Of a stretch of DNA of 64,000 nt, positions 5,059-39,971 are shown in pieces. The translations under genes were made by a program, and so were the position numbers. The notes under the pieces are model-generated. The model was given only the letters and a program-made list of their open reading frames with translations, was not told the origin of the DNA and did no database searches. The stretch covers positions 501,458-565,457 of the forward strand of contig JAUSGT010000002.1 of the NCBI GenBank assembly GCA_030648835.1, written 5' to 3'. Source of the DNA: Candidatus Moraniibacteriota bacterium. GTDB taxonomy: Bacteria; Patescibacteriota; Minisyncoccia; Moranbacterales; UBA1568. Each line of letters starts with the position of its first letter. Position 1 is the stretch's first letter.

Positions 5059-6030
5059 ATGGAAAAGAAAAAGATCTTGGTGACGGGAGGGGCGGGTTTC
5101 TTGGGCTCGCATCTCTGCAAGCGGTTGCTCGATGACGGGCACGAAGTCGTCTGTCTGGACAATTTTTTTACCGGCAACAAGGATAACGTCATTGAGCTCA
5201 TGTCGAATCCGCGTTTCGAGCTTCTGCGCCACGATGTGACGTTCCCTATTTATTTGGAAGTGAATCAAATTTACAATCTCGCCTGTCCCGCCTCCCCGAT
5301 CCATTATCAATTCGATCCGGTCCAGACGACCAAGACTTCGGTGCATGGGGCGATCAATATGCTGGGACTGGCCAAGCGGACCAAGGCCCGCATTCTTCAG
5401 GCCTCCACTTCGGAAGTGTATGGTGATCCGCAAGTTCATCCGCAGACAGAAGATTACTGGGGGCACGTCAACCCCATCGGTTTCCGTTCCTGCTATGACG
5501 AGGGCAAGCGTTGCGCCGAGACGCTCTTCTTCGATTATTATCGTCAGAACCAGCTGGACATCCGTGTCGTGCGGATTTTCAATACCTACGGTCCGAATAT
5601 GCATCCTAATGACGGCCGAGTAGTATCCAATTTTATCGTCCAGGCTCTGAAAAATGAAGACATCACCATCTATGGAGATGGTTCACAGACACGGAGTTTT
5701 CAGTATGTGGATGATCTGATCGAGGGAATGGTGAGGATGATGAATCAGGACGGTTTCATCGGGCCAGTGAATTTGGGTAATCCTCATGAGTTTACTATTA
5801 AAGAGCTCGCTGAAAGAGTACTTCACCTTATTCCAGAAAGCAAAAGTAAAATCATTTATAAGCCCTTGCCGGAAGATGACCCGCTGCAGCGTCAGCCGGA
5901 TATTACTCTGGCTAAGACAAAGCTTGACGGCTGGGATCCGAAGATCCAGTTGGAAGAAGGGTTGGCTCGGACCATTGGTTATTTCCGCGAGTACTTTGAA
6001 AAAGATGAGAAAAAAGTGGCTTCTTGTTGA
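5059..6030 (+). CDS. uxs: UDP-glucuronate decarboxylase (UDP-xylose synthase)
   Basis: '[32 protein letters not shown]', '[19 protein letters not shown]', '[26 protein letters not shown]', '[16 protein letters not shown]' are near-identical to characterised UXS enzymes. Confidence 0.9.
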
Positions 6031-6054: not shown

Positions 6055-6747
6055 ATGAAAGCGTTTGTGTTGGCAGCGGGAGTAGGAAGCCGTATGATGC
6101 CTTTAACAAAAGAGGTACCCAAGCCTATGTTAAAGCTTCTTGGTAAGCCCTTATTACAATATATTCTCGAATATCTCCCTCAAGAGGTGAGTGAAATTAT
6201 TCTTGTGGTTGGGTATAAAAGGGAAATAATCCAAAGTTATTTTGGAGAATCATTCAAAGGAAAAAAGATAACGTATCTTATACAAGAAAACCCAACAGGG
6301 ACCGCAGATGCTCTAAAAATATGTCGCCCATATCTGACGGATGGTGAGCGTTTTTTACTTACCTTCGGAGATGATATTTATGATAAAGAAAGTGTTGCTC
6401 GCTGCTTGCTTCACCCATACGCTTTTTTAATAGGTGAAGTTGCTGATCCGAGGCGCTATGGTGTTGTTGTTCTTGAGAAAGACGAAACGATTTTAGAAAT
6501 AGAAGAAAAGCCCCAGCAACCAAAATCAAACCTTGTCGCTCCCGGTTTGTATATTATTGATACCACTATTTTTGATTATGAAAGCTATGTCGATTTGTCT
6601 CACGAGTGTTATTTGACGCCTCTACTTAACCAGTTTGTGAAAAGGAAATCAGTTTTTGTCGAAAAGGTTGATTTTTGGCTTACTTTTGCCTATCCTGAGG
6701 ATTTACAAAAAGCAGAAAAAATCCTCAAATCACATGAGAAGGGTTGA
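6055..6747 (+). CDS. Sugar-phosphate nucleotidyltransferase (NTP_transferase family, short form)
   Basis: 'MKAFVLAAGVGSRMMPLTKEVPKPMLKLLGKPLLQYILEYL' is the canonical G-x-G-x-R nucleotidyltransferase N-terminus. Substrate not assignable. Confidence 0.7.
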   Translation: MKAFVLAAGVGSRMMPLTKEVPKPMLKLLGKPLLQYILEYLPQEVSEIILVVGYKREIIQSYFGESFKGKKITYLIQENPTGTADALKICRPYLTDGERFLLTFGDDIYDKESVARCLLHPYAFLIGEVADPRRYGVVVLEKDETILEIEEKPQQPKSNLVAPGLYIIDTTIFDYESYVDLSHECYLTPLLNQFVKRKSVFVEKVDFWLTFAYPEDLQKAEKILKSHEKG

Positions 6748-6772
6748 CATAAATGCTAAAAGAGAGTATAAT
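6744..6772 (+). promoter_or_regulatory. Consensus sigma-70-type promoter (TTGACA-17 nt-TATAAT) upstream of the Nudix gene
   Basis: TTGACA at 6744-6749, 17-nt spacer, TATAAT at 6767-6772. GGGGG Shine-Dalgarno before ATG 6852. Confidence 0.6.
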
Positions 6773-6851
6773 ACTACGTTACTCTATTTTTGAGTGATCA
6801 GTTATAATTTGTTGTAACTGTAATGTATTTTTTACATTTAGAGGGGGCCAC

Positions 6852-7562
6852 ATGGCTGCAACAAAGAAGTTGTCAGGAGTTCCCGGCTATAGGCCTGGTT
6901 GGAGGCTGACAGTAGACGGAATGTCTGTCGAGGGCGAATGGAAAATTATTTCGCCATTTGGATCGGTAGAAACCGCCGTTGTACTCCATGCCGATGGCAG
7001 TCCGAATTTTGATCGGCCAGCGTATCGAGAGGCGCCACACGTGAATTGTGTTGTGTGGGGCCGGGACAAGGATGGCGTGGCGAAGTTCGCTGTTATCCGT
7101 CAGCCACGTCCGCATGCCGATGACCCGGAACAGTCAGGAAATGATCATCAGTCGGTAGTGTTTGGGCAGACTCCTATGGGGTTTCTCGAAAAAATTATCG
7201 GCAAGGATCTTATTCCCAGGCTCGAGGATGTGGAACATGCCGCAGAGCGTGAAGCGTTGGAAGAGGCTGGTGCGCGGGTGGTGCTCAATGTCGAGCGTCC
7301 GCCATATCCGTGGCACAATCCGAACCCGACCTTCGTCGCCACGTGGGCGGATATCGTTTTCATCGAAGTCGATCTTGCCAAGATTGCTGAACTGAAGCCC
7401 GACCGTAGCGAGCCCATCTTTTCGGCAGAGTATGTCACGGTCGGAGAGCTTCGTCATCGGATTGCAGCAGGAAAGGATGAAGCGGGTGCGGTATATCGAG
7501 GCTGCACTTCAAACTCGGTATGGCTGATATTCTTTGCCCTCCATCCCGAACTTTGGCAGTAG
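6852..7562 (+). CDS. Nudix hydrolase
   Basis: Nudix-box core 'EHAAEREALEEAGA' (REUxEExGU). GC-rich relative to neighbours. Driven by its own consensus promoter. Confidence 0.7.
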   Translation: MAATKKLSGVPGYRPGWRLTVDGMSVEGEWKIISPFGSVETAVVLHADGSPNFDRPAYREAPHVNCVVWGRDKDGVAKFAVIRQPRPHADDPEQSGNDHQSVVFGQTPMGFLEKIIGKDLIPRLEDVEHAAEREALEEAGARVVLNVERPPYPWHNPNPTFVATWADIVFIEVDLAKIAELKPDRSEPIFSAEYVTVGELRHRIAAGKDEAGAVYRGCTSNSVWLIFFALHPELWQ

Positions 7563-7713
7563 ATACAAGGAGACTTGTGGAACTTTTTCTTAGCAACGGC
7601 TACGGAAAGGACAAGGCGTTTACCCGCAAGGGAGACGCCTTTTTTCTGCCCATTTTCTTTTCTAAGTAAGGAACCTTTGCTATACTGCAAGGGATAGATT
7701 TTTTAAAGTTTCT

Positions 7714-12733: not shown

Positions 12734-13231
12734 ATGAGTTTACCTATACATTTATTCATTCATTTCTTCTTTGCTTTTGTGGCCGGGGGCATTTCTTGGT
12801 TCTTTTTTGGTAATCCGGTTTTATCCTTTATTTCAGGATTTCTTGGCGGAGTGCTCATTGATTTGGATCATCTTATTGACTATTTTCTGGCTTTTGGCTC
12901 TCGCTGGAATCTCAGTTATTTTATCCGCGGATATCAGTTTTTGAAAAGCGACAAAGTGTATGTATTGTTCCATGGTTGGGAATACGTTATACTGCTGGCA
13001 ATCGTTGTTTGGGCAGTTGGAGCGCAGTCAAGCCTGGGAGTGGCTTTGTTCGCGTTGGGATTAGGGGGATTGTTTCATCTGATTGCGGATACGCTGATCA
13101 ATCACGGGATGTCATTTCGGGCGTACTCGATCCTCTATAGATTGGTGAACAAATTTGAAGTAGAAAAAATAGTGACCCCTGAACATTATCTGGAGCATAT
13201 GAGAGAAAAGCAATCAACTCGTTTTGAATAA
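12734..13231 (+). CDS. Membrane-bound metal-dependent hydrolase-like protein (YdjM/DUF457-like)
   Basis: Polytopic. 'GGVLIDLDHLIDY' and 'HLIADTLINHG' His/Asp clusters resemble DUF457. Confidence 0.45.
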   Translation: MSLPIHLFIHFFFAFVAGGISWFFFGNPVLSFISGFLGGVLIDLDHLIDYFLAFGSRWNLSYFIRGYQFLKSDKVYVLFHGWEYVILLAIVVWAVGAQSSLGVALFALGLGGLFHLIADTLINHGMSFRAYSILYRLVNKFEVEKIVTPEHYLEHMREKQSTRFE

Positions 13232-13235
13232 AAAT

Positions 13236-14093
13236 ATGCTTGTTTCAGTCATTATCACGACTAAGAACGAAGAGAAGAATATAGAGAACTGTCTAAAATC
13301 AATCAAAGAGCAGGGTTACCCTCAAGAATTGATTGAAGTTATTGTTGTTGATAATAATTCTACCGACAAAACAAAAGAAATTGCTCTTCGTTATACTAAC
13401 CAGGTTTTTGATAAGGGCCCGGAAAGATCCGCCCAAAGGAATTTTGGCGTTGAGAAGTCCAAGGGGGAATATTTTCTCTATCTGGATGCGGATATGACTT
13501 TGCATAAAGATGTTATCAAACATTGTGTAGAAAAAATTTCTGTCATTTCCGCTACCTCTCTTGTCATTCCCGCGGAGGCGGGAATCCAGGTTAGTAATCC
13601 CGACATTGTCGCCCTCTATATTTCAGAAATCGTGATGGGCAAAAAGTTTTTTTCCCAAGTTCGCAGGTTTGAACGAAGTTTTTATGACGCGACGGTTATT
13701 GACTGCGCGCGTTTTATCAAGAAAAGCGCTTTTCAAAAAGTAGGAGGCTTTGATGAGAATCTGACTGGTCCGGAAGATTGGGATTTGGATAAAAAATTGC
13801 GGAAAATCGGAACGACAGCTCTCGTGAAGACACCAATATATCATAACGAAGCAGAGTTTGAATTGAGGAAGTATCTGGACAAAAAAGGGTACTATGCCAA
13901 GAAATTTGATACCTATATCGCCAAATGGGGAAAAAATGATCCAGACTTGCAAAAGCAATTCGGCTTGTACTACCGGTTTCTTGGAGTTTTTGTGGAAAAA
14001 GGGAAGTGGAAAAAAATGTTTGCTCACCCACTACTGACTTTTGGCATGTTTTTTCTTCGATTTCTCGTCGGATTGAAGTTTGTGTTGAGATAG
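13236..14093 (+). CDS. GT2 glycosyltransferase
   Basis: 'VSVIITTKNEEKNIENCLKSI', 'EVIVVDNNSTDKT', 'YLDADMTLHKD', 'PEDWDLD'. Confidence 0.7.
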   Translation: MLVSVIITTKNEEKNIENCLKSIKEQGYPQELIEVIVVDNNSTDKTKEIALRYTNQVFDKGPERSAQRNFGVEKSKGEYFLYLDADMTLHKDVIKHCVEKISVISATSLVIPAEAGIQVSNPDIVALYISEIVMGKKFFSQVRRFERSFYDATVIDCARFIKKSAFQKVGGFDENLTGPEDWDLDKKLRKIGTTALVKTPIYHNEAEFELRKYLDKKGYYAKKFDTYIAKWGKNDPDLQKQFGLYYRFLGVFVEKGKWKKMFAHPLLTFGMFFLRFLVGLKFVLR

Positions 14094-14171
14094 GATATTT
14101 TATAAAATAGGTAAGGAAAGTATTCCTGGCTTGGTTAAAGCAAATTCGAACTTTCTTTGGAAAGAAATACT

Positions 14172-15152
14172 ATGCACGAACTACCTATTCAGAAAAAACA
14201 TATCGTTCAACAAAGAGAACTTCCTTCTGAATACGCATCCTATAAACGCGAAGATCTCCCGACTGTTCAAGAAATATGGGAGCAAATTCAGGCTGTCAAC
14301 GGCGAGGTCAATAGAGCTCGAGAGCATAAAAATTTTCAGGAAATACCTGCGGATCAACTGCACCAATGCATTGAGGATTGTCTCAATGAAATCGATGCTA
14401 TAGAGCGAGCGGCTAGAAACAAAGAGAAATGGAAAATTTCTGCAGAAATGGCACAGCGAAGGCATCTGATAGTAAACCTTGCTGCGCCTGGAACCTATTA
14501 TCTGTCATCGAAAAATGATAAATATCGGGATAAGCCATGGGCGACCCTTTTGGATCGGGAAAGAGCGGATACCTCAGCTATCTTGGGGATACAAATTGCC
14601 GCTCAAACAACCGGTCAAAACCATTCTTTGTTTACAAAGTCGCGCATTCTCGATGGTCTTGATCCGGATCTGAACAGGCTCCGCCCTGATGTGCACGAAA
14701 GTATCGAAGCATCTGGGACACATTTTTTGTATATTGGGACTGAACAAGAGGGGGACGCCATTAGAAAAGTTCTTGCCTCACCGACTTCTTTCATTCCTGA
14801 AGATGTGGTCACGATCATTGATCAGTCTATCGGGAATACGCTCGATTCGATACACGCCCTGAAGCAATTTTTGCAGAGTTCCTACCCACCTGGAGAAACA
14901 ACTCACGGAAAGCCTTTGAGTATTGACTTCGTCATGGGAGCTCAGGCTTTGAGGACTTTGCGGATGTGCAATAAATTTGATGTTATTCCTTCAGAGGCTC
15001 TAGTCAACCTTTTTCCGATGGCGACTCCTCAAAGTGGCATAAGAGAATACCCGAAAAATGAAATAAGTGGTACCATCTACTATGCCTTGACAAACGATGC
15101 TTCCTTGAAGCCGGTTCCCTACTCGTTGATGGGGGAAGATAACATCTTATAA
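14172..15152 (+). CDS. Hypothetical protein, possible DUF218 (YdcF/ElyC-like) domain
   Basis: 'EDVVTIIDQSIGNTLDSIHALKQFL' resembles the DUF218 C-terminal motif. Weak. Confidence 0.3.
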   Translation: MHELPIQKKHIVQQRELPSEYASYKREDLPTVQEIWEQIQAVNGEVNRAREHKNFQEIPADQLHQCIEDCLNEIDAIERAARNKEKWKISAEMAQRRHLIVNLAAPGTYYLSSKNDKYRDKPWATLLDRERADTSAILGIQIAAQTTGQNHSLFTKSRILDGLDPDLNRLRPDVHESIEASGTHFLYIGTEQEGDAIRKVLASPTSFIPEDVVTIIDQSIGNTLDSIHALKQFLQSSYPPGETTHGKPLSIDFVMGAQALRTLRMCNKFDVIPSEALVNLFPMATPQSGIREYPKNEISGTIYYALTNDASLKPVPYSLMGEDNIL

Positions 15153-15164
15153 TGGTAAAAAGTT

Positions 15165-15962
15165 ATGAAAGTAGTCATACTAGCTGGAGGTTTGGGGTCA
15201 CGTTTAAGTGAAGAAACGTCAATAAAACCGAAACCGATGGTGGAAATTGGGGGAAAGCCAATTTTGTGGCATATCATGAAAATATATTCCCACTATGGAT
15301 TCAATGATTTTGTCATTTGTTTGGGATACAAGGGCTACTATATAAAAGAATGGTTCAACAACTATTACCTGCATAATAGCGATGTGACATTCGATTTGGA
15401 AAAAAACAGTATACAGTACTGTAAAAATTGGGCGGAAAAGTGGAAAGTGACACTGGTGGATACCGGCGAAGATACTATGACAGGTGGACGCATAAAGAGG
15501 ATCCAAGAATATGTCAATAATGAGACCTTCATGTTGACGTATGGTGATGGTGTGGCTGATATAAATATTATGGAGCTTCTTCAATTTCACAAACAGCATA
15601 AAAAGATAGCGACGGTGACAGCAGTCGTTCCGGAGGGAAGATTTGGCACCCTAAAAATAAATAAAGAAGGTGGTGTCACAATTTTTGGGGAAAAGAAAGA
15701 TAATAAAAATAGAATTAATGGGGGTTTCTTTGTTCTTGAGCCGAAATTTTTTGACTATTTGAAAAATGATGAAACAGTACTTGAAAAAACGCCTCTTGAA
15801 ACACTCGCGGAAGAAGGTGAATTGAAAGCTTTTTTCCATGACGGATTTTGGAAACCTATGGACAGTTTAAAGGATAGGCATACTCTTGAGGGATTATGGG
15901 AAAGCAAACAAGCTCCCTGGAAAATGTGGGAAAATACTCATGATCACTGCAAACATGAATAA
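15165..15962 (+). CDS. rfbF: Glucose-1-phosphate cytidylyltransferase
   Basis: 'MKVVILAGGLGSRLSEETSIKPKPMVEIGGKPILWHIMKIYSHYGFNDFVICLGYKGYYIKEWF' is near-identical in pattern to RfbF/DdhA. Confidence 0.9.
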   Translation: MKVVILAGGLGSRLSEETSIKPKPMVEIGGKPILWHIMKIYSHYGFNDFVICLGYKGYYIKEWFNNYYLHNSDVTFDLEKNSIQYCKNWAEKWKVTLVDTGEDTMTGGRIKRIQEYVNNETFMLTYGDGVADINIMELLQFHKQHKKIATVTAVVPEGRFGTLKINKEGGVTIFGEKKDNKNRINGGFFVLEPKFFDYLKNDETVLEKTPLETLAEEGELKAFFHDGFWKPMDSLKDRHTLEGLWESKQAPWKMWENTHDHCKHE

Positions 15963-17022
15963 TTTTTTCAAAGATAAAAAAGTACTTATTACGGGGCACA
16001 CCGGATTCAAGGGATCTTGGCTTACTCAAGTGTTGTTAAACTGGGGAGCCGAAATCACCGGAGTGGCGCTTGTACCCAGTACGCAACCGAACCTATTTAC
16101 CATCCTGAAGCTCGAAAAAAGAATCAGGAATAATTACTTGGATATTCGAGACTTTCAAAAAGTGAAAGACCTCTTGATGAAGGAAAAACCTGAGATTCTT
16201 TTTCATTTTGCGGCCCAGCCGATCGTGCGAGACAGCTATGACGACCCTTTGAAAACATATACCACCAATACTTTGGGAACAGCCAATGTCTTGCAAGCGA
16301 TCAAAGAAACCGGGTGTGTGAAGTCTGCGGTTATCATTACTACCGATAAAGTATACGAAAATAAAGAATCGCACCATCCGTATAGGGAGAATGATCCGTT
16401 GGGAGGCTATGATCCGTATAGCGCCAGCAAAGCGGCTGCTGATATCATTGCCCAATCCTATATCCGGTCTTTCTTCCATCCGGACGATTTTGGTACAAAA
16501 CACAGCACGCTGGTTGCCGTAGCGCGTGCCGGAAATGTCATCGGAGGAGGCGATTGGTCTCCCTATAGGTTGGTTCCCGACATTGTGAGATCTATTTATG
16601 AAAAAAAAGAAAGAATTATCATCAGGAATCCACAAGCTATCCGTCCATGGGAACATGTGCTGGAACCGCTTTCGGGGTATCTGATGTTGGCGGAGAAGCT
16701 GTATAATGGTGAAAAAAGTATCTCTGGCGCCTGGAATTTCGGTCCGGACGAAGAAAGCTTTGTTTCTGTCGAAAAGCTGGTTGATGAAGCCGTACGAATC
16801 TTGGGGAAAGGGGAGATACAAATCAGCCCAGACGATTCCAAGCATGAAGCCGGTATTCTGAAACTCGATACGAGCAAGGCAAAGAATCTTCTCAGTTGGA
16901 AACCGAGACTCTCTTTCAATGAGAATCTGTCACTGACTTTCGAATGGTATAGAAACTACTATGAAAAAATCGAGGACCCGATTGAATTTACAAATACCCA
17001 GATAGATTCTTTCTTCAAGTAG
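15955..17022 (+). CDS. rfbG: CDP-glucose 4,6-dehydratase
   Basis: 'KKVLITGHTGFKGSWLTQVLLNWGAEITGVAL', 'YSASKAAADII', extended SDR fold. ATG at 15955 overlaps rfbF by 8 nt. Confidence 0.9.
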   Translation: MNNFFKDKKVLITGHTGFKGSWLTQVLLNWGAEITGVALVPSTQPNLFTILKLEKRIRNNYLDIRDFQKVKDLLMKEKPEILFHFAAQPIVRDSYDDPLKTYTTNTLGTANVLQAIKETGCVKSAVIITTDKVYENKESHHPYRENDPLGGYDPYSASKAAADIIAQSYIRSFFHPDDFGTKHSTLVAVARAGNVIGGGDWSPYRLVPDIVRSIYEKKERIIIRNPQAIRPWEHVLEPLSGYLMLAEKLYNGEKSISGAWNFGPDEESFVSVEKLVDEAVRILGKGEIQISPDDSKHEAGILKLDTSKAKNLLSWKPRLSFNENLSLTFEWYRNYYEKIEDPIEFTNTQIDSFFK

Positions 17023-17055
17023 TAATTATTACCTTTTTTGCATCGTAAGGCGGCA

Positions 17056-17084
17056 TTGACATAACTTGTAAAAAATGCTATAAT
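17056..17084 (+). promoter_or_regulatory. Consensus sigma-70-type promoter (TTGACA-17-TATAAT) upstream of a GC-rich inserted gene
   Basis: TTGACA at 17056-17061, 17-nt spacer, TATAAT at 17079-17084. AGGTGA Shine-Dalgarno before GTG 17144. Confidence 0.6.
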
Positions 17085-17143
17085 GGACTTTACCTAAATA
17101 GGTAAAAATGTCCGTTCCAAATTCAATAGAGAAGAGGTGAAAA

Positions 17144-17737
17144 GTGGATAAATTTGCAATAAAGGCTTTAAAGAGCCTTGCAATCGGGCTGGAAACGAAT
17201 TCAGCTACGAAGGACGAGGTGAAAGCAGCCGCCGTGGCAGTACTTGGTTTGGTTGACCCGCGGGAACCGTATGGTTCGGCTCTCTTCAATGCTTTGGCAC
17301 GACTAACCATTTCCGTGTGTGTGGAGATGGTGATCTTGCGAAAAGCTGCGGATTCATCGCAAGAGGTGCTTCTCCGCAAGCGGGGAGCCGACGAGGTCTA
17401 CGCTCATCAATGGCACGCGGTAGGCTCGTCGTTCCGTCCCGGTGACCCAGTAGCCAAAACGAGCGCTCGGGCGCTTCGGGAATTGGGGAATATACCCCTT
17501 CCGTCACCCGTTTTTCGTGGGCACTTCAACTGTCTCACCGAGGAGCGCGGGCACTACGTCCAGTTGATTTACGCCATCGACGCCACGGGTGTGGAAATAC
17601 CCACAATGCCGGGGCATATCGAATGGTTTTCCACTGAGGCCTTGCCCCAAGACCTCGTCGAGAACCACCGCGAAGTAGTGCTTCCGGTGGCTCTCGGACA
17701 CTATGACTCACGCGACATGGAAAGCTTCGTTCGCTGA
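17144..17737 (+). CDS. GC-rich hypothetical protein with degenerate Nudix-like segment
   Basis: GTG start. 'VCVEMVILRK...EVLLRKRG...GSSFRPGDPVAKTSARALRELGN' resembles a Nudix box lacking the catalytic Glu pair. Inserted between rfbG and rfbH with its own promoter. Confidence 0.4.
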   Translation: MDKFAIKALKSLAIGLETNSATKDEVKAAAVAVLGLVDPREPYGSALFNALARLTISVCVEMVILRKAADSSQEVLLRKRGADEVYAHQWHAVGSSFRPGDPVAKTSARALRELGNIPLPSPVFRGHFNCLTEERGHYVQLIYAIDATGVEIPTMPGHIEWFSTEALPQDLVENHREVVLPVALGHYDSRDMESFVR

Positions 17738-17897
17738 TCAGGCGGGGATCGATTCGGCCTTGTGCAAGATATTTGCGCAAGGCCGTTTTATTTATCATAA
17801 AATCTCAGATTTTGAAGAATGACGTATTTGCCGTCTTTTATTGGTTTTTCCTTTCAAACCGTGTATACTATGCATACTAATTACTGAGAGCGGTCCC

Positions 17898-19202
17898 ATG
17901 GATACGTCTTTAAAGGATTCCATAAAAGCAGAATATAACAAGAGATTTCCTCAAAAAAAGTTTATTCCTGGGGAATCGGTAGTGCCCGTTTCAGGGAAGA
18001 TTTTCGATGCACAAGAAATGATTGGAATGACCGAGGCTGTTTTGGAAGGCTGGTGGACTGAGGGCCACGTTGCCGAGGAATTCGAGAAGAAATTGGCTGA
18101 ATTTGTCGGAGTGAAATTCTGTACCACGGTCAACTCGGGTTCTTCCGCCAACTTGACTGCCTTCACCGCCTTGACTTCGCCTTGGCTTGGAGAAAAAAGA
18201 ATCAAAGCGGGTGATGAAGTGATCACAATCGCGGCGAGCTTTCCGACAACTGTCAACCCCATTATTCAAAACGGGTGTGTTCCCGTGTTCGTCGATATCG
18301 AGATGAAGACCCTCTCTATCGATACCTCGCAGATGAAGAAAGCCTTGAGTAAGAAGACACGCGCGGTGATGGTGGCTCATACTTTGGGAAATCCTTTCGA
18401 GGTGAAAAAAGTCCGAGATTTTTGTAAAAAACATCGTCTCTGGTTTATCGAAGATAATTGTGATGGTCTTGGTAGCGAATATGACGGGCAAAGAACCGGT
18501 TCTTTCGGCGATATTTCGACACTCAGCTTTTATCCGGCACATCATATCAGTACTGGTGAAGGGGGCGCTATCTTCACGAACAACGCTCTGCTTCACAAGG
18601 CCATTCGGTCTATCCGTGACTGGGGAAGGGATTGCTGGTGCCCGACGGGGAAAGAAAATACCTGCGGAGTGCGTTTCAATTGGAAACTAGGCGAATTGCC
18701 TCAGGGCTATGATCATAAATATATTTATTCCCATATCGGTTATAACCTCAAGATGACCGATATTCAGGCCGCTTGCGGATTGGCTCAGCTGAAAAAATTG
18801 GACTCATTCATACGGCAGAGGCGAGAGAATTATGCCTCTTTGCGGAAAAAGTTAGCCAAGTTCCATACGTACTTCGATATCGTCGAAGCAACAGAGAAGA
18901 GTAAGCCCAGTTGGTTTGGGCTATTGCTTACTTTGAAAGATGACTGCGGTTTTCAGCGCAAGGACTTCACGCAATACTTGAATACCAAGAAAATAGGCAC
19001 CCGTCTTCTTTTTGCTGGCAATATCACCAAACAACCGTATTTTATCAACTATCAGGTACCCTATCGCAAGATTGGAGATCTCAAGAATACGGATAAAGTG
19101 ATGAACCAAACACTCTGGCTTGGGGTGTATCCGGGCATAACTGAAGAAATGATTGATTGGATTGCCCAATCCTTTGAAGATTACTTTGAACAGTTCAAAT
19201 AA
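17898..19202 (+). CDS. rfbH: CDP-6-deoxy-D-xylo-4-hexulose 3-dehydrase (E1, PMP-dependent, DegT family)
   Basis: 'TVNSGSSANLTAFTALTSP', 'GDEVITIAASFPTTVNPIIQNG', 'SFYPAHHISTGEGG' (His replaces the PLP Lys, the E1/DdhC hallmark), 'RDWGRDCWCPTG', 'GYNLKMTDIQAACGLAQL'. Confidence 0.85.
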   Translation: MDTSLKDSIKAEYNKRFPQKKFIPGESVVPVSGKIFDAQEMIGMTEAVLEGWWTEGHVAEEFEKKLAEFVGVKFCTTVNSGSSANLTAFTALTSPWLGEKRIKAGDEVITIAASFPTTVNPIIQNGCVPVFVDIEMKTLSIDTSQMKKALSKKTRAVMVAHTLGNPFEVKKVRDFCKKHRLWFIEDNCDGLGSEYDGQRTGSFGDISTLSFYPAHHISTGEGGAIFTNNALLHKAIRSIRDWGRDCWCPTGKENTCGVRFNWKLGELPQGYDHKYIYSHIGYNLKMTDIQAACGLAQLKKLDSFIRQRRENYASLRKKLAKFHTYFDIVEATEKSKPSWFGLLLTLKDDCGFQRKDFTQYLNTKKIGTRLLFAGNITKQPYFINYQVPYRKIGDLKNTDKVMNQTLWLGVYPGITEEMIDWIAQSFEDYFEQFK

Positions 19203-19207
19203 AAAAT

Positions 19208-20977
19208 ATGAAAGCATCAGATTATATTATTGATTTTATTCATGAACAAGGCATTGATCATGTTTTCGGCTATATCGGAGGGGCCATTACTCACTTGGTA
19301 GATTCCATGGATAAGTCAACGACCGTCAAATATATTCAGGTGTATCACGAGCAGACAGCGGCATTGGCAGCCGAAGGGTACGCAAAAAATTCCGGAAAAA
19401 CAGGCGTAGCCATGGCAACGAGTGGTCCCGGCGCTACCAATCTCATGACAGGAATAGCGGATGCCTATTTCGATTCCATCCCGACCGTCTTTATCACCGG
19501 CCAGGTCAACACGTACGAATTCAAATATGACAAGCCGATCAGACAGCAGGGATTCCAGGAGACGGATATCGTAAGCATCGTCCAATCAATTACCAAGTAC
19601 GCCACTATCGTCAGTGACCCGAAAAAAATCCGCTATGAGCTTGAGAAAGCGTTTTATATGGCCAAGGAGGGCAGGCCGGGGCCGGTAGTCATCGATATTC
19701 CTATGGATATCCAAAGAACGGACATTGATCCTGAAAAACTTGAGGGTTTCAGCCCAGAGAAAGAAGGGACGCAGGCCGAAGAGGTTTCTGAGGAAGCTTT
19801 TCAGGAAATTATCGCCCTGCTCAAGCGAAGCAAGCGGCCTATCATACTTGCCGGAGGCGGGATTATTCGCGGAAAAGCGGAAAAAGAACTCCTGCAATTT
19901 GCAAAAAATAACCATATTCCTGTAGTCGCGTCACTCATGGGCAAGGGGTGTTTCCCCGAAAATGATGATTTATTCGTGGGTGTTATTGGCGCTTACGGGA
20001 ATCGTTGTGCCAACATCACACTGGCAAATGCTGACCTCTTGTTCGCGCTCGGCTCGAGAATGGACACGAGACAGATCGGTACGCTATTAAAAAGTTTTTT
20101 ACGGGGTGGAAAGATTATTCATATTGATTTGGATAAGAATGAGATTGAATACCACCGGCTTGAAGGCAGGATAAAAATAAGAGCTGACGTAAAAATTTTC
20201 TTGGAAAAGATGAACAATCATCAGGATGCGAAAGAAGCGCAGGAAGAATGGCTCAGTTACATGAGAAAAATCAGAGAAAAGTATTCTCAAGTCAAGGAAG
20301 TTGAAAAGAATTGTGCCAATAAGCTTCCTTACGAAATGATATGGCTCATCGATAAAAATGCCAAAGAAGACCAGATCTATTGCGTGGATGTCGGGCAGAA
20401 CCAGATGTTTGCCTTCCAAGCGCTTCAAATACGCGCTGGTCAGAAATTCTTTACCAGCGGCGGATTGGCACCCATGGGTTGTGCTGTACCATTTGCCGTG
20501 GGGGCGAGTTTTAGCGATGAGAAGAAAAAGAACATCGTGGTTATTACCGGGGACGGTGGACTCCATATATCCGTCCAGGCTCTGATGCTTATTTCCCAAT
20601 ACGATTTACCTATTAAAGTCGTCGTACTGAACAACTATGCTCTGGGTATGATCACTCAGTTTCAGGATCTCTATTTCGACAAAAAAAAGGTGGGTACAAC
20701 AAAAAAGGGCGGCTATGTGGTTCCGAATTTCAAAGCTCTCGCCAGAGCCTACCACCTTCCCTATTACAGGATCGATAAGAAAAACCTCGCAACGTACGGT
20801 GAAATAGTAGGAAAACCCGGACCATGTTTTATAGAGGTCGTCATTCGCGGAACAACGGAGGTCTATCCAAAATTGGAAGTGAATAATCCCATTGAAGATA
20901 TTAGCCCAAAACTCAGCCGGGAAGAGTTAAAGGAAAGTATGATCATCGATCCGATCAGCACTGAAGCCGCCTTCTAA
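19208..20977 (+). CDS. Thiamine-diphosphate-dependent enzyme, acetolactate-synthase-large-subunit-like (candidate YerE-like C-branching enzyme)
   Basis: TPP_enzyme N, central and C domains: 'GYIGGAITHLVDSM', 'GVAMATSGPGATNLMTGIADAYFDSIPTVFITGQV', 'ITGDGGLHISVQALM...VVLNNYALGMI'. Sits directly after rfbFGH. Confidence 0.75.
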   Translation: MKASDYIIDFIHEQGIDHVFGYIGGAITHLVDSMDKSTTVKYIQVYHEQTAALAAEGYAKNSGKTGVAMATSGPGATNLMTGIADAYFDSIPTVFITGQVNTYEFKYDKPIRQQGFQETDIVSIVQSITKYATIVSDPKKIRYELEKAFYMAKEGRPGPVVIDIPMDIQRTDIDPEKLEGFSPEKEGTQAEEVSEEAFQEIIALLKRSKRPIILAGGGIIRGKAEKELLQFAKNNHIPVVASLMGKGCFPENDDLFVGVIGAYGNRCANITLANADLLFALGSRMDTRQIGTLLKSFLRGGKIIHIDLDKNEIEYHRLEGRIKIRADVKIFLEKMNNHQDAKEAQEEWLSYMRKIREKYSQVKEVEKNCANKLPYEMIWLIDKNAKEDQIYCVDVGQNQMFAFQALQIRAGQKFFTSGGLAPMGCAVPFAVGASFSDEKKKNIVVITGDGGLHISVQALMLISQYDLPIKVVVLNNYALGMITQFQDLYFDKKKVGTTKKGGYVVPNFKALARAYHLPYYRIDKKNLATYGEIVGKPGPCFIEVVIRGTTEVYPKLEVNNPIEDISPKLSREELKESMIIDPISTEAAF

Positions 20978-21026
20978 CTACCCATTCCTATTTACCGGTA
21001 ATGAAATACAGGCAGTTGAACATCAT

Positions 21027-21953
21027 ATGAGAAATATAGCCATACTGGGTGCTACAGGATATATTGGAAAGTCTTTGGTTCAGCACTTATCTAGACAAAA
21101 AGAAGATAAGTTTTTTTTATTTGCCAGATCACAGGAAAAGTTGAAAAAACTTTTGTATGTCACTGATCGTAATCCGCTATTTACCACCGGATCATTCCAG
21201 AAATTTTCTGCCGGCCACTATGATGTTGTGATAAATTGTGTTGGGATGGGTAATCCGAATGAGGTAAGGAAGTCAGGAATGAAAATTATTCAAGTTACGG
21301 AAAAATTTGATAATTTGATTTTAAAATACTTAGAGAAGCACCCGAACACACTGTATATAAATTTGAGTAGCGGGGCAGTGTATGGAAAAATAATTGAGAA
21401 GCCTCTGGAAATTACTTCACAATCTGTTATCGACATAAACAACCTTGACTCTGGTGATTATTATGCTATCGCCAAAATGAACTCAGAGGCAAAGCACAGG
21501 GCATTGCCAAATTTCAATATTGTTGATATTAGGGTTTTTTCTTTTTTCAGCCATTTTATTGACTTATCTTCCGGTTATCTCCTGGCTGATATTATAAACT
21601 CTTTGCGGTATAAAAAGGAACTGATAACGAGTCCGGATGATATTATTCGTGATTATGTCGGTGCGGTCGAGCTTTGGGATCTGATGAAACTAATAATGAA
21701 AAAAAGAACGGCGAATGATGTCTTCGATATTTATAGCGCTAAGCCGGTATCGAAATTTGCATTGCTTAAATACTTAAAAAGAAGATACGGATTGCAATAC
21801 TCGATAGTGAAAACTTCTCGGAAACAAAGCCCTACCGGTATCAAAAAATTTTACTATTCAAAAAATAGAAAAGCCAAAAACATAGGCTATTCCCCAAAAA
21901 AAACTTCTTTAGAAATAGTTGATGATGAAATTAAGTACTGTTTACTCCCATGA
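21027..21953 (+). CDS. NAD(P)-dependent epimerase/dehydratase/reductase family protein (candidate YerF-like ketoreductase)
   Basis: 'MRNIAILGATGYIGKSLV' Rossmann motif, 'SSGAVYG'. Atypical SDR fold. Confidence 0.6.
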   Translation: MRNIAILGATGYIGKSLVQHLSRQKEDKFFLFARSQEKLKKLLYVTDRNPLFTTGSFQKFSAGHYDVVINCVGMGNPNEVRKSGMKIIQVTEKFDNLILKYLEKHPNTLYINLSSGAVYGKIIEKPLEITSQSVIDINNLDSGDYYAIAKMNSEAKHRALPNFNIVDIRVFSFFSHFIDLSSGYLLADIINSLRYKKELITSPDDIIRDYVGAVELWDLMKLIMKKRTANDVFDIYSAKPVSKFALLKYLKRRYGLQYSIVKTSRKQSPTGIKKFYYSKNRKAKNIGYSPKKTSLEIVDDEIKYCLLP

Positions 21954-22648
21954 ACATCGAAAAATACTCGGAAGTAGCCCCCCAATATTACCAGGAGGAG
22001 GTTCCTCAACTTCTTGATAAGTACTTACTGAGTACCAAATTTTCGAATATTTTGGATTGTGGATGTGGGGATGGGCCTTTGCTGTATGCTCTCTGCAGGC
22101 GGGAGGATTTTGGCACAAAGAAAATATTTGCCATAGATCTCTCACAAAAACGAATAGAGCTGGTGAAAAAAATAAGCACCAATATTATTGCCACGGTGGA
22201 TAGCGCTGAAGAGATGGACACCATTGCTGACCAAAGCATCGATTTTTTCATCTCTACGCAAGTAATAGAACACGTAGATGACAAAAAAATGATAATGAAA
22301 ATAGCTGAAAAAGTGAAAAGCGGGGGAACAATCTATGTATCCACTGTATTTAAGAAGTGGTATGGCTGGTATTTCTACCGAAATCACGGAACGTGGGTTC
22401 TGGATCCGACTCATTTGAGAGAATACTCTTCCGATGAACAACTCTTGGACTTATTTGATAAGAGAGAATTTGTGTTGTTGGAGAACAGGAAACAACTGCA
22501 ATGGTTTCCTGTTTCTGATTTCTTCATAAAAAGATTGGGGTTGAAAGACAGGAAGCTATATGAAAATAGGCTTATGCAGATCATCCGAAAAGTGAAAATA
22601 CCGATTTTAGGCTATTATAATTGGGAAATTGTCATGAGAAGAGTATGA
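21950..22648 (+). CDS. Class I SAM-dependent methyltransferase
   Basis: 'ILDCGCGDGPLLYAL' motif I, 'STQVIEHVDD', 'KSGGTIYVS'. Confidence 0.7.
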   Translation: MNIEKYSEVAPQYYQEEVPQLLDKYLLSTKFSNILDCGCGDGPLLYALCRREDFGTKKIFAIDLSQKRIELVKKISTNIIATVDSAEEMDTIADQSIDFFISTQVIEHVDDKKMIMKIAEKVKSGGTIYVSTVFKKWYGWYFYRNHGTWVLDPTHLREYSSDEQLLDLFDKREFVLLENRKQLQWFPVSDFFIKRLGLKDRKLYENRLMQIIRKVKIPILGYYNWEIVMRRV

Positions 22649-23700
22649 TGTCTGGCCAAGAACCATTGACAATAAGCGTGGTTATTCCGACGTATAATAT
22701 GGCGCATGTTATTGGTGATACGATCAAGAGCGTCCTCAATCAGTCATACGGAAATTTTGAAATAATCGTTCAAGATAATGATTCTCAGGATAATACCGCG
22801 ACCGTAATCCGATCTTTTGCCGATCCTAGGATCAAATACTTCAAAAACAGCGCTAATCTCGGGTATGCCAAAAATCTTATTGCCGGATGGAAAAATTGCA
22901 CTGGTGATATTCTCTATTTCTTGGGGGCGGATGATGTATTATCAAAAAACGCTCTCAAAGAAACAAGCGCGGCTTTTATGAGAGATGAAAACATCGGAGC
23001 GGTGACGCGGTCGTATTTCTGGTTTCAAGGCTCTACAGAGCATATACGGACTCCGATAAGGGTAACCCCGATACTCAATGAACATCAGGATGAAACAATT
23101 GATATTCATAATATTCAAAAAGCGATGTATGTTATGCATAATGAGATTTTGGGTCAGTTATCAGGCCTGGCTTTTCGGATACAATACTTACAAGAGAGTT
23201 TCTTCACCAGAGAGAACAATTGGATAGCGCATGGATACCCGTTTCTTCATATTTTTAAAAAGCACCCGGTAGTTTTTTTGAAAAATCATCAGGTAGCGGT
23301 GAGAATAGGGGAAAACACGATACGACAAAAAGGGAATACGTTCTATCTCATATCGCCCACAAAACGGTGGATCGAAATGCTGGACGAAATATTGTATGAA
23401 GATGAATTTAAGGAATTAAAAACATGTTTCATTAAAAAAATTATTGCTTCCAATTACGTTGGTCTGGTTCAAATCAAATCCTACGCGGGTATGTATTTCC
23501 TCCTCCGAGAAATTGGTTATTTGCTGAAATATAGGATATCAAATATCTTGAGTGTCAGATTCTGGTTTTTTTCTCTGGGGAGCATAGTGGTTCCCGGCTT
23601 TCTTTTGGGGAGAATGGCTGACTACTACAAAAATCGAATCAACAGTAAAATTATGAAGGAAATTCATTTTGAGTACGATCTAAGCAGTAAACAAACATAA
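22645..23700 (+). CDS. GT2 glycosyltransferase
   Basis: 'ISVVIPTYNMAHVIGDTIKSVLNQSY..FEIIVQDNDSQDNT', 'LGADDVL'. Confidence 0.7.
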   Translation: MMSGQEPLTISVVIPTYNMAHVIGDTIKSVLNQSYGNFEIIVQDNDSQDNTATVIRSFADPRIKYFKNSANLGYAKNLIAGWKNCTGDILYFLGADDVLSKNALKETSAAFMRDENIGAVTRSYFWFQGSTEHIRTPIRVTPILNEHQDETIDIHNIQKAMYVMHNEILGQLSGLAFRIQYLQESFFTRENNWIAHGYPFLHIFKKHPVVFLKNHQVAVRIGENTIRQKGNTFYLISPTKRWIEMLDEILYEDEFKELKTCFIKKIIASNYVGLVQIKSYAGMYFLLREIGYLLKYRISNILSVRFWFFSLGSIVVPGFLLGRMADYYKNRINSKIMKEIHFEYDLSSKQT

Positions 23701-39811: not shown

Positions 39812-39942
39812 GAGTTTTCTCCTGAGGTTGGTAGACCTTTAGGCCCGGAGCTTTTTCAGGTATCCCAGAGGGTGAAATTGTCAAAGTACCCATACTACCG
39901 GGTACCGAGACCCAGTGTCGCGCATTTTTAGCTCGACCATAC

Positions 39943-39971
39943 ATTATACACCTTTTTAGTGATTTTGTCAA
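39943..39971 (-). promoter_or_regulatory. Consensus sigma-70-type promoter (TTGACA-17-TATAAT) on minus strand for the 38834..39811 gene
   Basis: Reverse complement reads TTGACA-aaatcactaaaaaggtg-TATAAT. Confidence 0.55.

Follow-up and report, generated by a model that had tools for sequence, protein, structure and literature searches.

Genetic organization of the rfbG-rfbH interval

The locus described here is part of a 64-kb stretch of Candidatus Moraniibacteriota DNA, the whole of which is referred to as the window, and consists of a single gene located between rfbG and rfbH together with the elements predicted to direct its expression. The features are as follows.

15967..17022, + strand: rfbG, CDP-glucose 4,6-dehydratase (TIGR02622, 1.9e-139), the upstream neighbor
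17004..17929, + strand: replaced segment, the sole stretch from rfbF to the GT2 gene without nucleotide similarity to L023 (blastn)
17056..17084, + strand: sigma-70-type promoter, -35 TTGACA at 17056-17061, 17-nt spacer, -10 TATAAT at 17079-17084
17089..17106, + strand: small hairpin TTTACCT-AAAT-AGGTAAA at the predicted transcript 5' end, read from the sequence
17133..17139, + strand: Shine-Dalgarno site AGAGGTG, 4 nt 5' of the GTG at 17144
17144..17737, + strand: coding sequence of 197 aa with a GTG start, its translation comprising three N-terminal helices followed by a Nudix fold
17755..17795, + strand: intrinsic terminator, stem at 17755-17785 followed by a T-run, where the monocistronic unit ends
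17841..17869, + strand: separate promoter of rfbH, TTGGTT, 17 nt, TATACT, read from the sequence
17898..19202, + strand: rfbH, CDP-6-deoxy-D-xylo-4-hexulose-3-dehydrase (E1; NF011936, 1.2e-205), the downstream neighbor

Judged from these elements, the Nudix gene is a self-contained transcription unit composed of a consensus promoter, a short leader, a GTG-start open reading frame and a terminator. An earlier note on this DNA had claimed a perfect TTGACA-17-TATAAT promoter and a GTG-start gene between rfbG and rfbH, and both are borne out: the promoter hexamers match the consensus at 12/12 positions and are joined by an extended -10 element (TG at 17076-17077), while the reading frame has both a Shine-Dalgarno site and a terminator of its own. 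Exact TTGACA-N17-TATAAT matches occur three times in the window, compared to a mean of 0.00 in 100 dinucleotide-preserving shuffles, and in each of the loci L001-L007 the perfect promoter occurs once and is always that of the cassette. Its hexamers are invariant in L001, L006 and L007, where the spacers vary, and the GTG start codon is likewise invariant across the four aligned loci. The hairpin of this strong terminator (14 pairs, 8 of them G-C) is conserved in position in the same three loci with compensatory changes in the stem. Short hairpins of differing sequence are located at the place analogous to 17089..17106 in L006 and L007, and this element is possibly an mRNA-stabilizing 5' stem-loop. 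The separate rfbH promoter is conserved in L001 and L006, and the rfbH start codon, ATG 17898, yields the 434-aa RfbH recorded at NCBI, a protein with 6788 homologs at E<=1e-150.

Composition and selection

The product is identical to the NCBI entry 'MAG: hypothetical protein Q7S04_03645 [Candidatus Moranbacteria bacterium]', and the substitution pattern of its gene (dN/dS 0.1-0.23) indicates that it is a real protein under purifying selection. At 0.559, the GC content of the reading frame exceeds that of rfbG and rfbH (0.44-0.45) and that of the window as a whole (0.448). This excess resides mainly at codon positions 1 (0.646) and 2 (0.429), whereas the GC3 of 0.60 is only about 1.25 sd above the window's average and within its range, and recent horizontal transfer was therefore rejected as a conclusion to be drawn from GC3 alone. 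Among the window, L001 and L006, the divergence of the Nudix gene keeps in step with that of rfbG and rfbH, which implies that its acquisition is older than the split of these three lineages. The window has another Nudix gene (6852-7562), and paralogy with it was rejected as well, as the two share no similarity.

A Nudix fold with a remodeled box

The protein has a Nudix fold with an N-terminal helical extension. The AF2 model (pLDDT 94.1, pTM 0.86) has helices at residues 3-17, 23-34 and 44-54, followed by a Nudix domain with the alpha/beta/alpha arrangement of about 130 residues that is typical of the superfamily, and the chain ends approximately 15 residues beyond this domain. Foldseek returned 366 PDB matches at E<=1e-3, and each of the 50 that are listed is a protein or domain with a Nudix fold, at a probability of 1.00. 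The structure prediction that the earlier note had suggested as a check thus returned a Nudix fold rather than an unrelated one, in agreement with its description of a Nudix-like stretch. The Pfam NUDIX model PF00293 scores the window protein at 18.5 bits (E = 0.0021), under the gathering threshold of 21.1 bits, whereas the relatives P0003 and P0005 reach 32.6 and 39.2 bits, respectively, and 64/80 family members match the model at E<=0.01.

Residues 94-115 of the translation (GSSFRPGDPVAKTSARALRELG) form the Nudix box, which reads G94-SSFRPG-D101-x7-R109-ALR-E113-LG. The canonical box GX5EX7REUXEEXGU (E53, E56 and E57 in MutT) is found in neither the window protein nor its family. The equivalents of E53 and E56 are Leu/Ala and Arg/Lys in 95/95 sequences examined, and the retained glutamate aligns with Glu69 in GDP-mannose mannosyl hydrolase (GDPMH), at the MutT E57 position. 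The loss of the catalytic glutamate pair that had been claimed from the window protein is consequently correct and extends to the family as a whole, in that the canonical REUxEE set is no longer intact. It is not correct that such a box is degenerate in the sense of decay. The substitutions occur throughout the family, are maintained under purifying selection and reproduce the modified signature of GDPMH in both spacing and pattern of glutamate loss, which is indicative of conservation. The clade of the window protein does lack one residue of the box helix (RALRELG compared to RLxxxEFG), which renders the assignment of the retained glutamate ambiguous there; as aligned, the deletion may misplace the remaining glutamate.

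An uncharacterized family of NDP-hexose operons

At E<=1e-3, a family profile search recovered 624 cluster representatives (187 at E<=1e-10), and every organism-named member belongs to the Patescibacteria. The family is uncharacterized, although some members are labeled 'ADP-ribose pyrophosphatase YjhB' at JGI. Identity to the window protein is only 25-40%. Residues E61, R80, H91, G94, R98, E101, R109, E113, R135, G136, W161 and H175 are near-invariant, and the box consensus is PGSxxRPGE-x7-RLxx[RK]EFG, with either F or L at the penultimate position in the wider form RLxx[R/K]E[F/L]G.

Across the 14 distinct genomic contexts examined, it is evident that operons for the modification of NDP-hexoses have family members among their regular accessory genes. 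Such clusters account for 11/14 contexts and contain genes for NTP-transferases, 4,6-dehydratases, DegT/RfbH proteins, TPP or transketolase proteins, methyltransferases and glycosyltransferases. In three NDP-sugar contexts the family gene is on the opposite strand, which again makes it a transcription unit of its own. No sugar cluster is visible around the gene in L007, L008 or L009: it adjoins ribosomal protein genes in the latter two, and in L007 a gene of the window's GC-rich type has two rve transposase genes as neighbors. The stand-alone relative in L009 is about 37% identical and also GC-rich relative to its locus (0.64 versus 0.46). In L011 the family gene follows that of a UDP-glucose dehydrogenase.

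Xenologous displacement at the rfbG-rfbH slot

Comparison with relatives places the window gene in a different light than the novel insertion that had been proposed to split otherwise contiguous rfbG and rfbH genes. An 8.5-kb cluster of L023 is colinear with the window save for 17004-17929; by blastn, the matches span window positions 15156-17003 (73%) and 17930-23693 (79%) and leave the interval between them uncovered. The corresponding slot of L023 is 650 bp and encodes a family member only 34% identical to the window protein. This resident gene has native GC, starts 13 nt past rfbG and has a stop codon that overlaps the rfbH start (ATGA). A gene of the same 34%-identity type is located directly upstream of rfbH in L022, at a contig end, where RfbH is 90% identical to that of the window. 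In both loci the distant type is operonic and of native GC. The GC-rich type, for its part, is present at this position in three lineages.

As relatives have a distant homolog at the same spot, the window gene is a replacement and not a new insertion: in the lineage of the window, the operon-embedded resident was displaced by a distant (34%) copy of foreign composition, with a terminator and a very strong promoter of its own, in a case of xenologous displacement. The direction of this replacement, that is, which of the two types is ancestral, is one that we infer. Conservation and synteny among relatives, which the earlier note had itself taken as contrary to its proposal, are essentially what is found. 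Its description of a GC-rich insert nonetheless stands insofar as a GC-richer reading frame with its own promoter is located between rfbG and rfbH; what does not stand is the implication of an interrupted gene pair, as the slot normally holds a homolog. A mobile element with defined ends was rejected, as no convincing direct or inverted repeats, whether as terminal repeats or as target duplications, flank the cassette.

The locus accordingly represents a clean natural case of xenologous displacement, with one gene swapped in an otherwise colinear 8.5-kb operon, by a 34%-identical homolog whose consensus promoter and terminator either came with it or were acquired. This should make it a useful example of how foreign genes get wired into reduced genomes.

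Proposed function and competing explanations

The best explanation overall, which we favor tentatively and with somewhat less than even confidence, is that the separate unit encodes a xenologous GDPMH-like Nudix protein that hydrolyzes a CDP-sugar. By analogy, the window protein is likely a one-metal CDP-sugar hydrolase or a controller of the CDP-sugar pool. Its ligand would be a CDP-hexose (CDP-glucose, or else the CDP-4-keto-6-deoxyglucose produced by RfbG), bound via the conserved arginines R80, R98, R109 and R135 and via one Mg2+ coordinated by E101/E113. Hydrolysis of the sugar-nucleotide would follow, plausibly through cleavage of the glycosidic C-O bond, like that catalyzed by GDPMH, with release of CDP. 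In this way, the CDP-sugar pool might be trimmed or purged and the nucleotide recycled, while the gene's own promoter would uncouple the protein level from that of the biosynthetic genes.

Two of the three box glutamates are lost family-wide; from their absence in the window protein, the earlier note had suggested a non-catalytic binding or regulatory role, or a decoy. That loss does not imply such a role, because GDPMH has the same signature and is an active enzyme. Even so, a non-catalytic sensor or partner is still a live rival, albeit an unlikely one: its Nudix fold would only bind the CDP-sugar, in the manner of NrtR/AraR Nudix domains that take up effectors but do not hydrolyze them, and the protein would modulate or chaperone an enzyme of the pathway, for instance RfbH. 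Among its best matches in sequence and fold are the NrtR-type 2fml and 3gz5/3gz8 and AraR 5bs6, and the overlap of the L023 resident's stop codon with the rfbH start is what one would expect of stoichiometric partners. Conversely, the window gene is transcriptionally uncoupled from rfbH, its product has no DNA-binding (wHTH) domain, and the active-site-type residues E61, H91, R98, E101, E113, R135 and H175 are near-invariant in a family with just 25-40% identity. The position of the gene, exactly between those of a 4,6-dehydratase and an E1 homolog in clusters for the synthesis of branched or deoxy sugars of unusual kinds, could also be accounted for by a non-hydrolytic enzyme catalyzing a 2,3-dehydratase-like or keto-isomerase step upon the CDP-4-keto-6-deoxyglucose of RfbG. 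In trideoxysugar pathways, the NDP-hexose 2,3-dehydratases EvaA and SpnO act ahead of an E1-type 3-dehydrase. Such Nudix-superfamily enzymes do use NDP-4-keto-6-deoxyhexoses, and one of them, SpnO, belongs to the pathway of the E1 homolog SpnQ (PMC8987622). Such an activity is improbable for the window protein, a member of a family of single-domain proteins of 165-200 aa, as opposed to the two-domain EvaA type, with no sequence similarity to PF03559/EvaA even at E<=10 and a position that is not fixed in the wider family (L011, L008, L009).

An ordinary house-cleaning Nudix diphosphatase, an NDP-X or NTP pyrophosphohydrolase acting upon CDP-X or ADP-ribose, for instance, and residing in the cluster by chance, would fit the YjhB annotation of some members. 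It is a poor candidate: the E53/E56 equivalents are replaced in every sequence examined, the similarity to the CDP-Chase family, which keeps KEUxEExGU, is slight, and chance can hardly account for 11/14 NDP-sugar contexts. Least credible, and largely refuted, is the proposition that the locus is a mobile cassette, selfish or moron-like, with no functional link to the sugar pathway, or a structured RNA without a protein gene. It is true that the unit has its own promoter, terminator and deviant composition and that the same cassette neighbors the transposase genes of L007. However, the gene that it displaced is a homolog, which implies that a function was kept rather than added, and the repeats of a mobile element are missing from its flanks. 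A phage or defense origin was likewise rejected, as no viral relatives were found in IMG/VR, no matches among PHROGs or in PADLOC, and only generic Nudix matches in BFVD. The folding of the whole transcript (z = -11.4) appears to favor an RNA, but this value is due to mixed composition and the terminator; the coding sequence alone folds weakly (z of -3.5 to +0.8 across six homologs), its antisense strand folds equally well (-3.8), the flanking genes are near 0, and no Rfam match was found at E<=1. Together with the dN/dS of the gene, this led to the rejection of a structured RNA.

The recurrent presence of a conserved GDPMH-type Nudix protein in NDP-hexose operons points either to the control or recycling of activated sugars or to an unrecognized step in deoxysugar synthesis. 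Patescibacteria (CPR) have tiny genomes, salvage their nucleotides and invest heavily in surface glycans, the genes for which are mostly annotated by analogy alone. It is conceivable, even if doubtful at present, that the family is an unrecognized and widespread part of patescibacterial CDP-/NDP-deoxysugar operons, responsible for a dedicated step beyond the textbook pathways. One possibility for this step is a one-metal Nudix enzyme cleaving CDP-sugars at carbon, and another is a minimal Nudix-fold dehydratase/isomerase of CDP-4-keto-6-deoxyglucose. In either case, an in situ replacement by a foreign copy under a maximal-strength promoter would underline the importance of the step.

Comparison with known Nudix systems

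The genomic logic of the window gene is the same as that of the EvaA/SpnO/TylX3 proteins (PF03559), which are Nudix-superfamily non-hydrolases that use what an NDP-hexose 4,6-dehydratase produces (PMC8987622). Membership in this group was rejected based upon the single-domain structure of the window family and its lack of sequence similarity: PF03559 matched none of 10 family members at E<=10 or of 80 at E<=0.01, and the EvaA chain (4J7G) is not among the best 60 of 91 PDB sequence matches at E<=10. Comparable in overall architecture are the CDP-Chase/UDP-X diphosphatases (B. cereus 3Q1P/6NCI and S. pneumoniae SP_1669), with a similar length of about 200 aa and an N-terminal three-helix domain preceding a C-terminal Nudix domain, an arrangement also seen in the model of the window protein. 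They are the top Foldseek match and align over the full length (6nci, 3q1p), though with just 13% identity, a TM of 0.48 and an rmsd of about 11.7 A. The CDP-Chase family hydrolyzes NDP-X cell-wall precursors, is described only in Gram-positive bacteria and is defined by a box ending in EX3KEUXEEXGU as well as YxTP and LPxLS motifs (PMC3655063). The window protein has a remodeled box without the canonical KEUxEExGU, and of the CDP-Chase motifs it has neither KE..EE nor YxTP; only L167-P168 resembles LPxLS.

Among solved structures, the best sequence matches of the family are the NrtR/AraR-type Nudix domains (2FML, 3GZ5/3GZ8 and 5BS6), which have '(D/E)xRG' and C-terminal 'xH(R/K)xxI' motifs in common with the window protein. 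Some domains of this type bind effectors without catalysis. They carry a C-terminal winged-helix DNA-binding domain, unlike the window protein, in which Pfam detects no HTH domain, and 2fml retains a canonical REtkEE box, unlike the family. In overall sequence, NrtR/ADPRase-like and MutT-like Nudix proteins (4.5e-11 for 2fml) are nearer to the family than GDPMH is (2e-3), and for this reason the box that it shares with GDPMH could be convergent.

There are several differences from GDPMH (Gmm/WcaH/NudD of E. coli; PDB 1RYA/2GT2). Overall similarity is weak (E = 2e-3 in a profile-to-sequence search, 19% identity), the curated NCBIfam GDPMH model NF011963 does not match the window protein, and its matches to 15/80 family members are weak (best 1.6e-5, far below equivalog level). 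The window protein is extended at its N-terminus by one or two helices, its clade has a box deletion that is not in GDPMH, the E56 position is Arg/Lys in the family rather than Ala, and invariant H91, R98, R135 and H175 are specific to the family. The general-base loop of GDPMH (QH, His123 in NP_416555.2, the His-124 of literature numbering), which comes before the last strand, corresponds to a gap in the family profile. The window protein's His158 varies even among its closest relatives, with Glu or Lys in P0003 and P0004; another, conserved histidine (H91 or H175) could perhaps substitute as the general base. The contexts differ as well, with a CDP-sugar pathway for the window gene and a GDP-sugar pathway for GDPMH.

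The parallels to GDPMH extend from fold to operon. GDPMH hydrolyzes an NDP-sugar at the sugar C1 to yield NDP and free sugar. It has the Nudix fold in common with the window protein (target-normalized Foldseek TM of 0.65-0.68), as well as an N-terminal F..v.R..P/T helix-strand. The one-metal signature spacing E-x7-R-L-x3-E-[L/F]-G, in which Leu stands for MutT E53 and E56 is missing, is found in both GDPMH (E-L-G) and the family, from which the window's own clade deviates (R-A-L-R-E-L-G). In an hhalign comparison of the family to E. coli Gmm (probability 87%, E = 4e-6), RLTMAELG is in register with the family box, and D21, R36, R64 and E69 of GDPMH (record numbering) align with E61, R80, R109 and E113. 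GDPMH is also encoded within an NDP-sugar operon, gmd-fcl-gmm-wcaI-cpsB, where its gene adjoins that of a 4,6-dehydratase, as does the window gene. If the window family does indeed cleave the C-O bond of CDP-sugars, it would constitute the second known C-O-cleaving Nudix lineage and would extend beyond GDP-sugars a mechanism of cleavage at carbon that is as yet established in just one lineage.

Results

A Nudix-fold gene with its own transcription unit between rfbG and rfbH

In the window, part of a Candidatus Moranbacteria (Patescibacteria/CPR) genome assembled from a metagenome, rfbG (15967-17022, + strand) and rfbH (17898-19202, + strand) flank an ORF, termed X here, whose product is identical to the NCBI entry 'MAG: hypothetical protein Q7S04_03645'. 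Its GC content is 0.559 versus 0.44-0.45 for rfbG and rfbH, an excess lying mainly at codon positions 1 (0.646) and 2 (0.429), as GC3 (0.60) is only about 1.25 sd over the mean of the 48 window ORFs. The promoter, the GTG-start ORF and the GC-richness described in the earlier note are all present, together with an intrinsic terminator that it did not mention.

Features of the X locus, from the sequence (ORF from its translation)
17056-17084, + strand: promoter; -35 TTGACA (17056-17061), 17-nt spacer, -10 TATAAT (17079-17084), with TG at -15/-14 (extended -10)
4 nt upstream of the GTG at 17144, + strand: Shine-Dalgarno sequence AGAGGTG
17144-17737, + strand: X, 197 codons, GTG start
17755-17785, + strand: intrinsic terminator, 14-bp stem followed by a T-run
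17841-17869, + strand: rfbH promoter, TTGGTT-17-TATACT; rfbH starts at ATG 17898

Perfect TTGACA-N17-TATAAT promoters occur three times in the window and not once in 100 dinucleotide-preserving shuffles. When 5.8 billion proteins were searched by word index, only three other close relatives of X turned up (70%, 70% and 54% identical), and the anatomy of the gene is the same in all close-relative lineages. The promoter hexamers and their 17-nt spacing are invariant, with the spacer and leader free to vary, and this promoter is the sole perfect one on each of L001-L007, contigs of relatives. The GTG start is likewise conserved, and the terminator stays in the same place while its stem varies by compensatory changes. 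Pairwise dN/dS values are 0.1-0.23, and synonymous sites are saturated. Wherever rfbH follows X (window, L001 and L006), a separate conserved promoter precedes it. X is a real protein gene under selection, monocistronic and strongly promoted. At the predicted 5' end of its transcript, three of four lineages have a short AU-rich hairpin (window 17089-17106, L006 ~1465-1484, L007 ~2160-2176), conserved in position and different in sequence, which could be an mRNA-stabilising stem-loop.

X is flanked by genes for CDP-sugar synthesis. rfbF encodes glucose-1-phosphate cytidylyltransferase, rfbG encodes CDP-glucose 4,6-dehydratase (TIGR02622, 1.9e-139), and rfbH (NF011936, 1.2e-205) is followed by genes for a TPP enzyme, an SDR, a methyltransferase and a GT2. 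The gene set resembles the yersiniose-type branched 3,6-dideoxyhexose route of Yersinia. At 13224-23700, RfbH (E1), the TPP enzyme, the SDR and the methyltransferase are all present, and the scanned ORFs included no AscD/RfbI-type E3 reductase; the 331-aa ORF at 14157-15152 had no family match whatever.

Genomic contexts and probable replacement of the resident gene

Clusters for NDP-hexose modification account for 11 of the 14 distinct contexts of the X family that were examined.

Sugar-cluster contexts of family members (L numbers, contigs of relatives)
Window, L001/2/3, L006: rfbG-X-rfbH
L023: rfbF-rfbG-X-rfbH-TPP-SDR-MT
L022: X-rfbH-rfbF-...-TPP
L011/12/15/16: NTP-transferase, dehydratase, UDP-glucose dehydrogenase, X
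L013, L019: clusters with TPP enzyme, DJ-1, HAD and a second Nudix gene
Locus of homologue P0023, L020, L021: X on the opposite strand, among NTP-transferase/dehydratase/SDR genes

Elsewhere the gene lies beside rpmA (L008), a ribosomal-protein operon (L009) or, on a contig of 2.9 kb (L007), a pair of rve transposase genes. On this last contig, at 117-2831, a GC-rich X cassette with perfect promoter, leader hairpin, GTG and terminator adjoins the two divergent rve-family genes, a possible clue to its mode of movement. Two different Nudix genes share one sugar cluster in L013 (1-154 and 6001-6519) and L019 (5001-5615 and 6600-7136), a pattern also seen in the window with the genes ~10 kb apart.

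Among the window, L001 and L006, identities are 70/70/66% for X, 71/73/65% for rfbG and 75/83/72% for rfbH; X has thus diverged about as far as the genes on either side, and the rfbG-X-rfbH block is old. The earlier note regarded X as an insert splitting otherwise contiguous genes, a view that does not survive comparison of the loci. L023, whose RfbH is 75% identical to that of the window, is colinear with it at the nucleotide level (73% over 15156-17003, 79% over 17930-23693) and has no blastn similarity between 17003 and 17930, yet a homologue fills this very position. That homologue is 34% identical to X, matches its locus in GC (0.416), starts 13 nt past the rfbG stop, and its own stop overlaps the rfbH ATG. 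In L022 (RfbH 90% identical to the window's), a member 65% identical to that of L023 and 34% to X lies directly upstream of rfbH; no perfect promoter was found before it within the available sequence, the gene being cut by the contig end. The rfbG-rfbH slot is thus regularly filled by the family. The resident gene of L023 (5466-6003) has an apparent frameshift in an A9 run (~5502-5510), which may reflect either misassembly of the homopolymer or a truly variable tract, and the gene caller gave only a 73-aa fragment.

On this comparison, X of the window lineage is a xenolog with its own promoter and terminator, the resident type presumably having been the one displaced. In a neighbour-joining tree, the window clade groups with P0065, P0007, P0161 and others; P0161 (L009), ~37% identical to X, has a GC of 0.64 in a locus of 0.46, and a Parcubacteria genome of 61% GC carries a 34-35% homologue at native composition. 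These observations and the excess at GC1/GC2 fit a possible origin in a GC-rich CPR donor. As an evolutionary event, the exchange of an operon member for a homologue that is 34% identical and has a perfect promoter is neat rather than startling.

Fold, family and Nudix box

An AF2 model from a four-sequence alignment was mediocre (pLDDT 71.6), and one from 80 family members reached pLDDT 94.1 and pTM 0.86, predicting N-terminal helices (3-17, 23-34 and 44-54) followed by a Nudix fold. Foldseek matched it to Nudix structures at probability 1.0, bearing out the Nudix-like stretch seen earlier. The best match, aligned over the full length (13% identity, TM 0.48), was CDP-Chase, which shares the architecture of N-terminal helices plus Nudix; MUTYH C-terminal domains, AraR/NrtR, MutT-like proteins and GDP-mannose mannosyl hydrolase (GDPMH) followed. 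By family profile, the nearest solved proteins were 2fml (4.5e-11), MutT, and NrtR- and AraR-type proteins, with GDPMH at 2e-3. X scores 18.5 bits against Pfam NUDIX, below the threshold of 21.1, and most relatives score above it. An exhaustive profile search at E<=1e-3 gave 624 cluster representatives, 187 of them passing E<=1e-10; most are 160-220 aa and match profile positions ~25 to 188. All named members belong to Patescibacteria (Moranbacteria, Staskawiczbacteria, Kerfeldbacteria, 'Parcubacteria group' and 'Patescibacteria group'), and full-text literature searches found no description of the family.

Across 95 sequences the family box reads W-H-x-P-G-[ST]-x-x-R-P-G-E-x7-R-L-x-x-[R/K]-E-[F/L/Y]-G. 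Equivalents of MutT E44, R52 and E57 are kept, the E53 position is always hydrophobic, that of E56 never holds an acidic residue and usually has Arg, Lys or Asn, and that of E41 is an invariant Arg; E61, R80, H91, R135-G136, W161 and H175 (X numbering) are also nearly invariant. In the window clade (window, P0002 and P0003) a deletion has shortened the box helix by one residue (RA[LI][RK]E[LC]G); P0004, the 54% relative, retains the family spacing. hhalign pairs E. coli gmm with the family profile (probability 87%, E = 4e-6), placing GDPMH PGGRVQKDE-x7-RLTMAELG in register with the family box, its N-terminal EDFATVVRSTP with ALFNALARLT, and its D21, R36, R64 and E69 (record numbering) with E61, R80, R109 and E113 of X. 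According to Gabelli et al. 2004 and the Mildvan laboratory, who reportedly number these residues one higher, they are said to be the leaving-group activators and the single Mg2+ ligand, and loss of two Glu to accompany cleavage of the sugar C1-O bond by a one-metal mechanism. The general-base His loop of GDPMH faces a gap in the family profile. Key Nudix motif residues are lost in GDP-sugar glycosyl hydrolases, consistent with a divergent mechanism (PMC5389931). The box had been called degenerate for want of the catalytic Glu-Glu pair: the loss holds family-wide, and by the alignment the box is a conserved GDPMH-type remodelling.

Other perfect-promoter cassettes

6744-7650, + strand: second cassette; perfect TTGACA-17-TATAAT promoter (6744-6772), GC-rich ORF 6852-7562 (236 aa), terminator-like hairpin near 7611-7645
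38834-39971, - strand: third cassette; perfect promoter (39943-39971), GC-rich 325-aa ORF 38834-39811

The second cassette lies directly 3' of an NTP-transferase gene (6055-6747), with an SDR at 5059-6030; its ORF has a canonical Nudix box, EHAAEREALEEAGA (Pfam NUDIX 26.6 bits), and is unrelated in sequence to X. The third ORF, antisense between a GT4 gene and a membrane-protein gene, had no match in Pfam, NCBIfam, PDB sequences, PADLOC or PHROG. Only 3 of 48 window ORFs exceed the mean GC by more than 1.5 sd, and these are exactly the ORFs behind its only three perfect promoters, all within glycan clusters; foreign-looking composition goes with maximal promoters here.

Discussion

The descriptive account of X, comprising its fold, family, association and replacement, is highly probable as a whole. 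The family, tied to NDP-hexose operons, has conserved a box with one Glu, and its invariant Arg, His and Glu residues form a cluster. With regard to chemistry, X may bind a CDP-hexose diphosphate via its arginines and one Mg2+ held by E101/E113, and would hydrolyse the sugar-nucleotide, most plausibly as GDPMH does, to CDP and free sugar. Such activity could limit or purge CDP-glucose or CDP-4-keto-6-deoxyglucose and return nucleotide to the pool. Most organisms of this kind are not known to synthesise nucleotides de novo, and we speculate that this return would be valuable to such a host. Operon-independent expression, as in the window X and the divergently oriented copies of the P0023 locus, L020 and L021, would make sense if X were a safety valve or regulator. 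We offer this chemistry tentatively, at somewhat less than an even chance, and regard description and chemistry taken together as only just short of even.

Translational coupling to rfbH in L023 favors a role without catalysis, in which X binds a CDP-sugar or acts as a partner of RfbH; we consider this unlikely but a serious contender. A non-hydrolytic sugar-modifying role is more doubtful still; Nudix-superfamily 2,3-dehydratases do use the same kind of substrate (PMC8987622), but a search for sequence similarity to them found none. That X should be a canonical diphosphatase seems decidedly improbable. A selfish cassette or structured RNA is barely credible, the latter having been tested and rejected (no Rfam match; CDS-alone folding z -3.5 to +0.8).

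Compared with gmm/wcaH, the X family, whose members we favor as sugar-nucleotide hydrolases, represents a different lineage in a different nucleotide context, without the GDPMH base loop; it also has an N-terminal helical extension, and its residue at the E56 position is basic. Nudix-type hydrolases of NDP-sugars that are encoded within NDP-sugar operons are already known from gmm/wcaH, and the X family is an uncharacterised variant.
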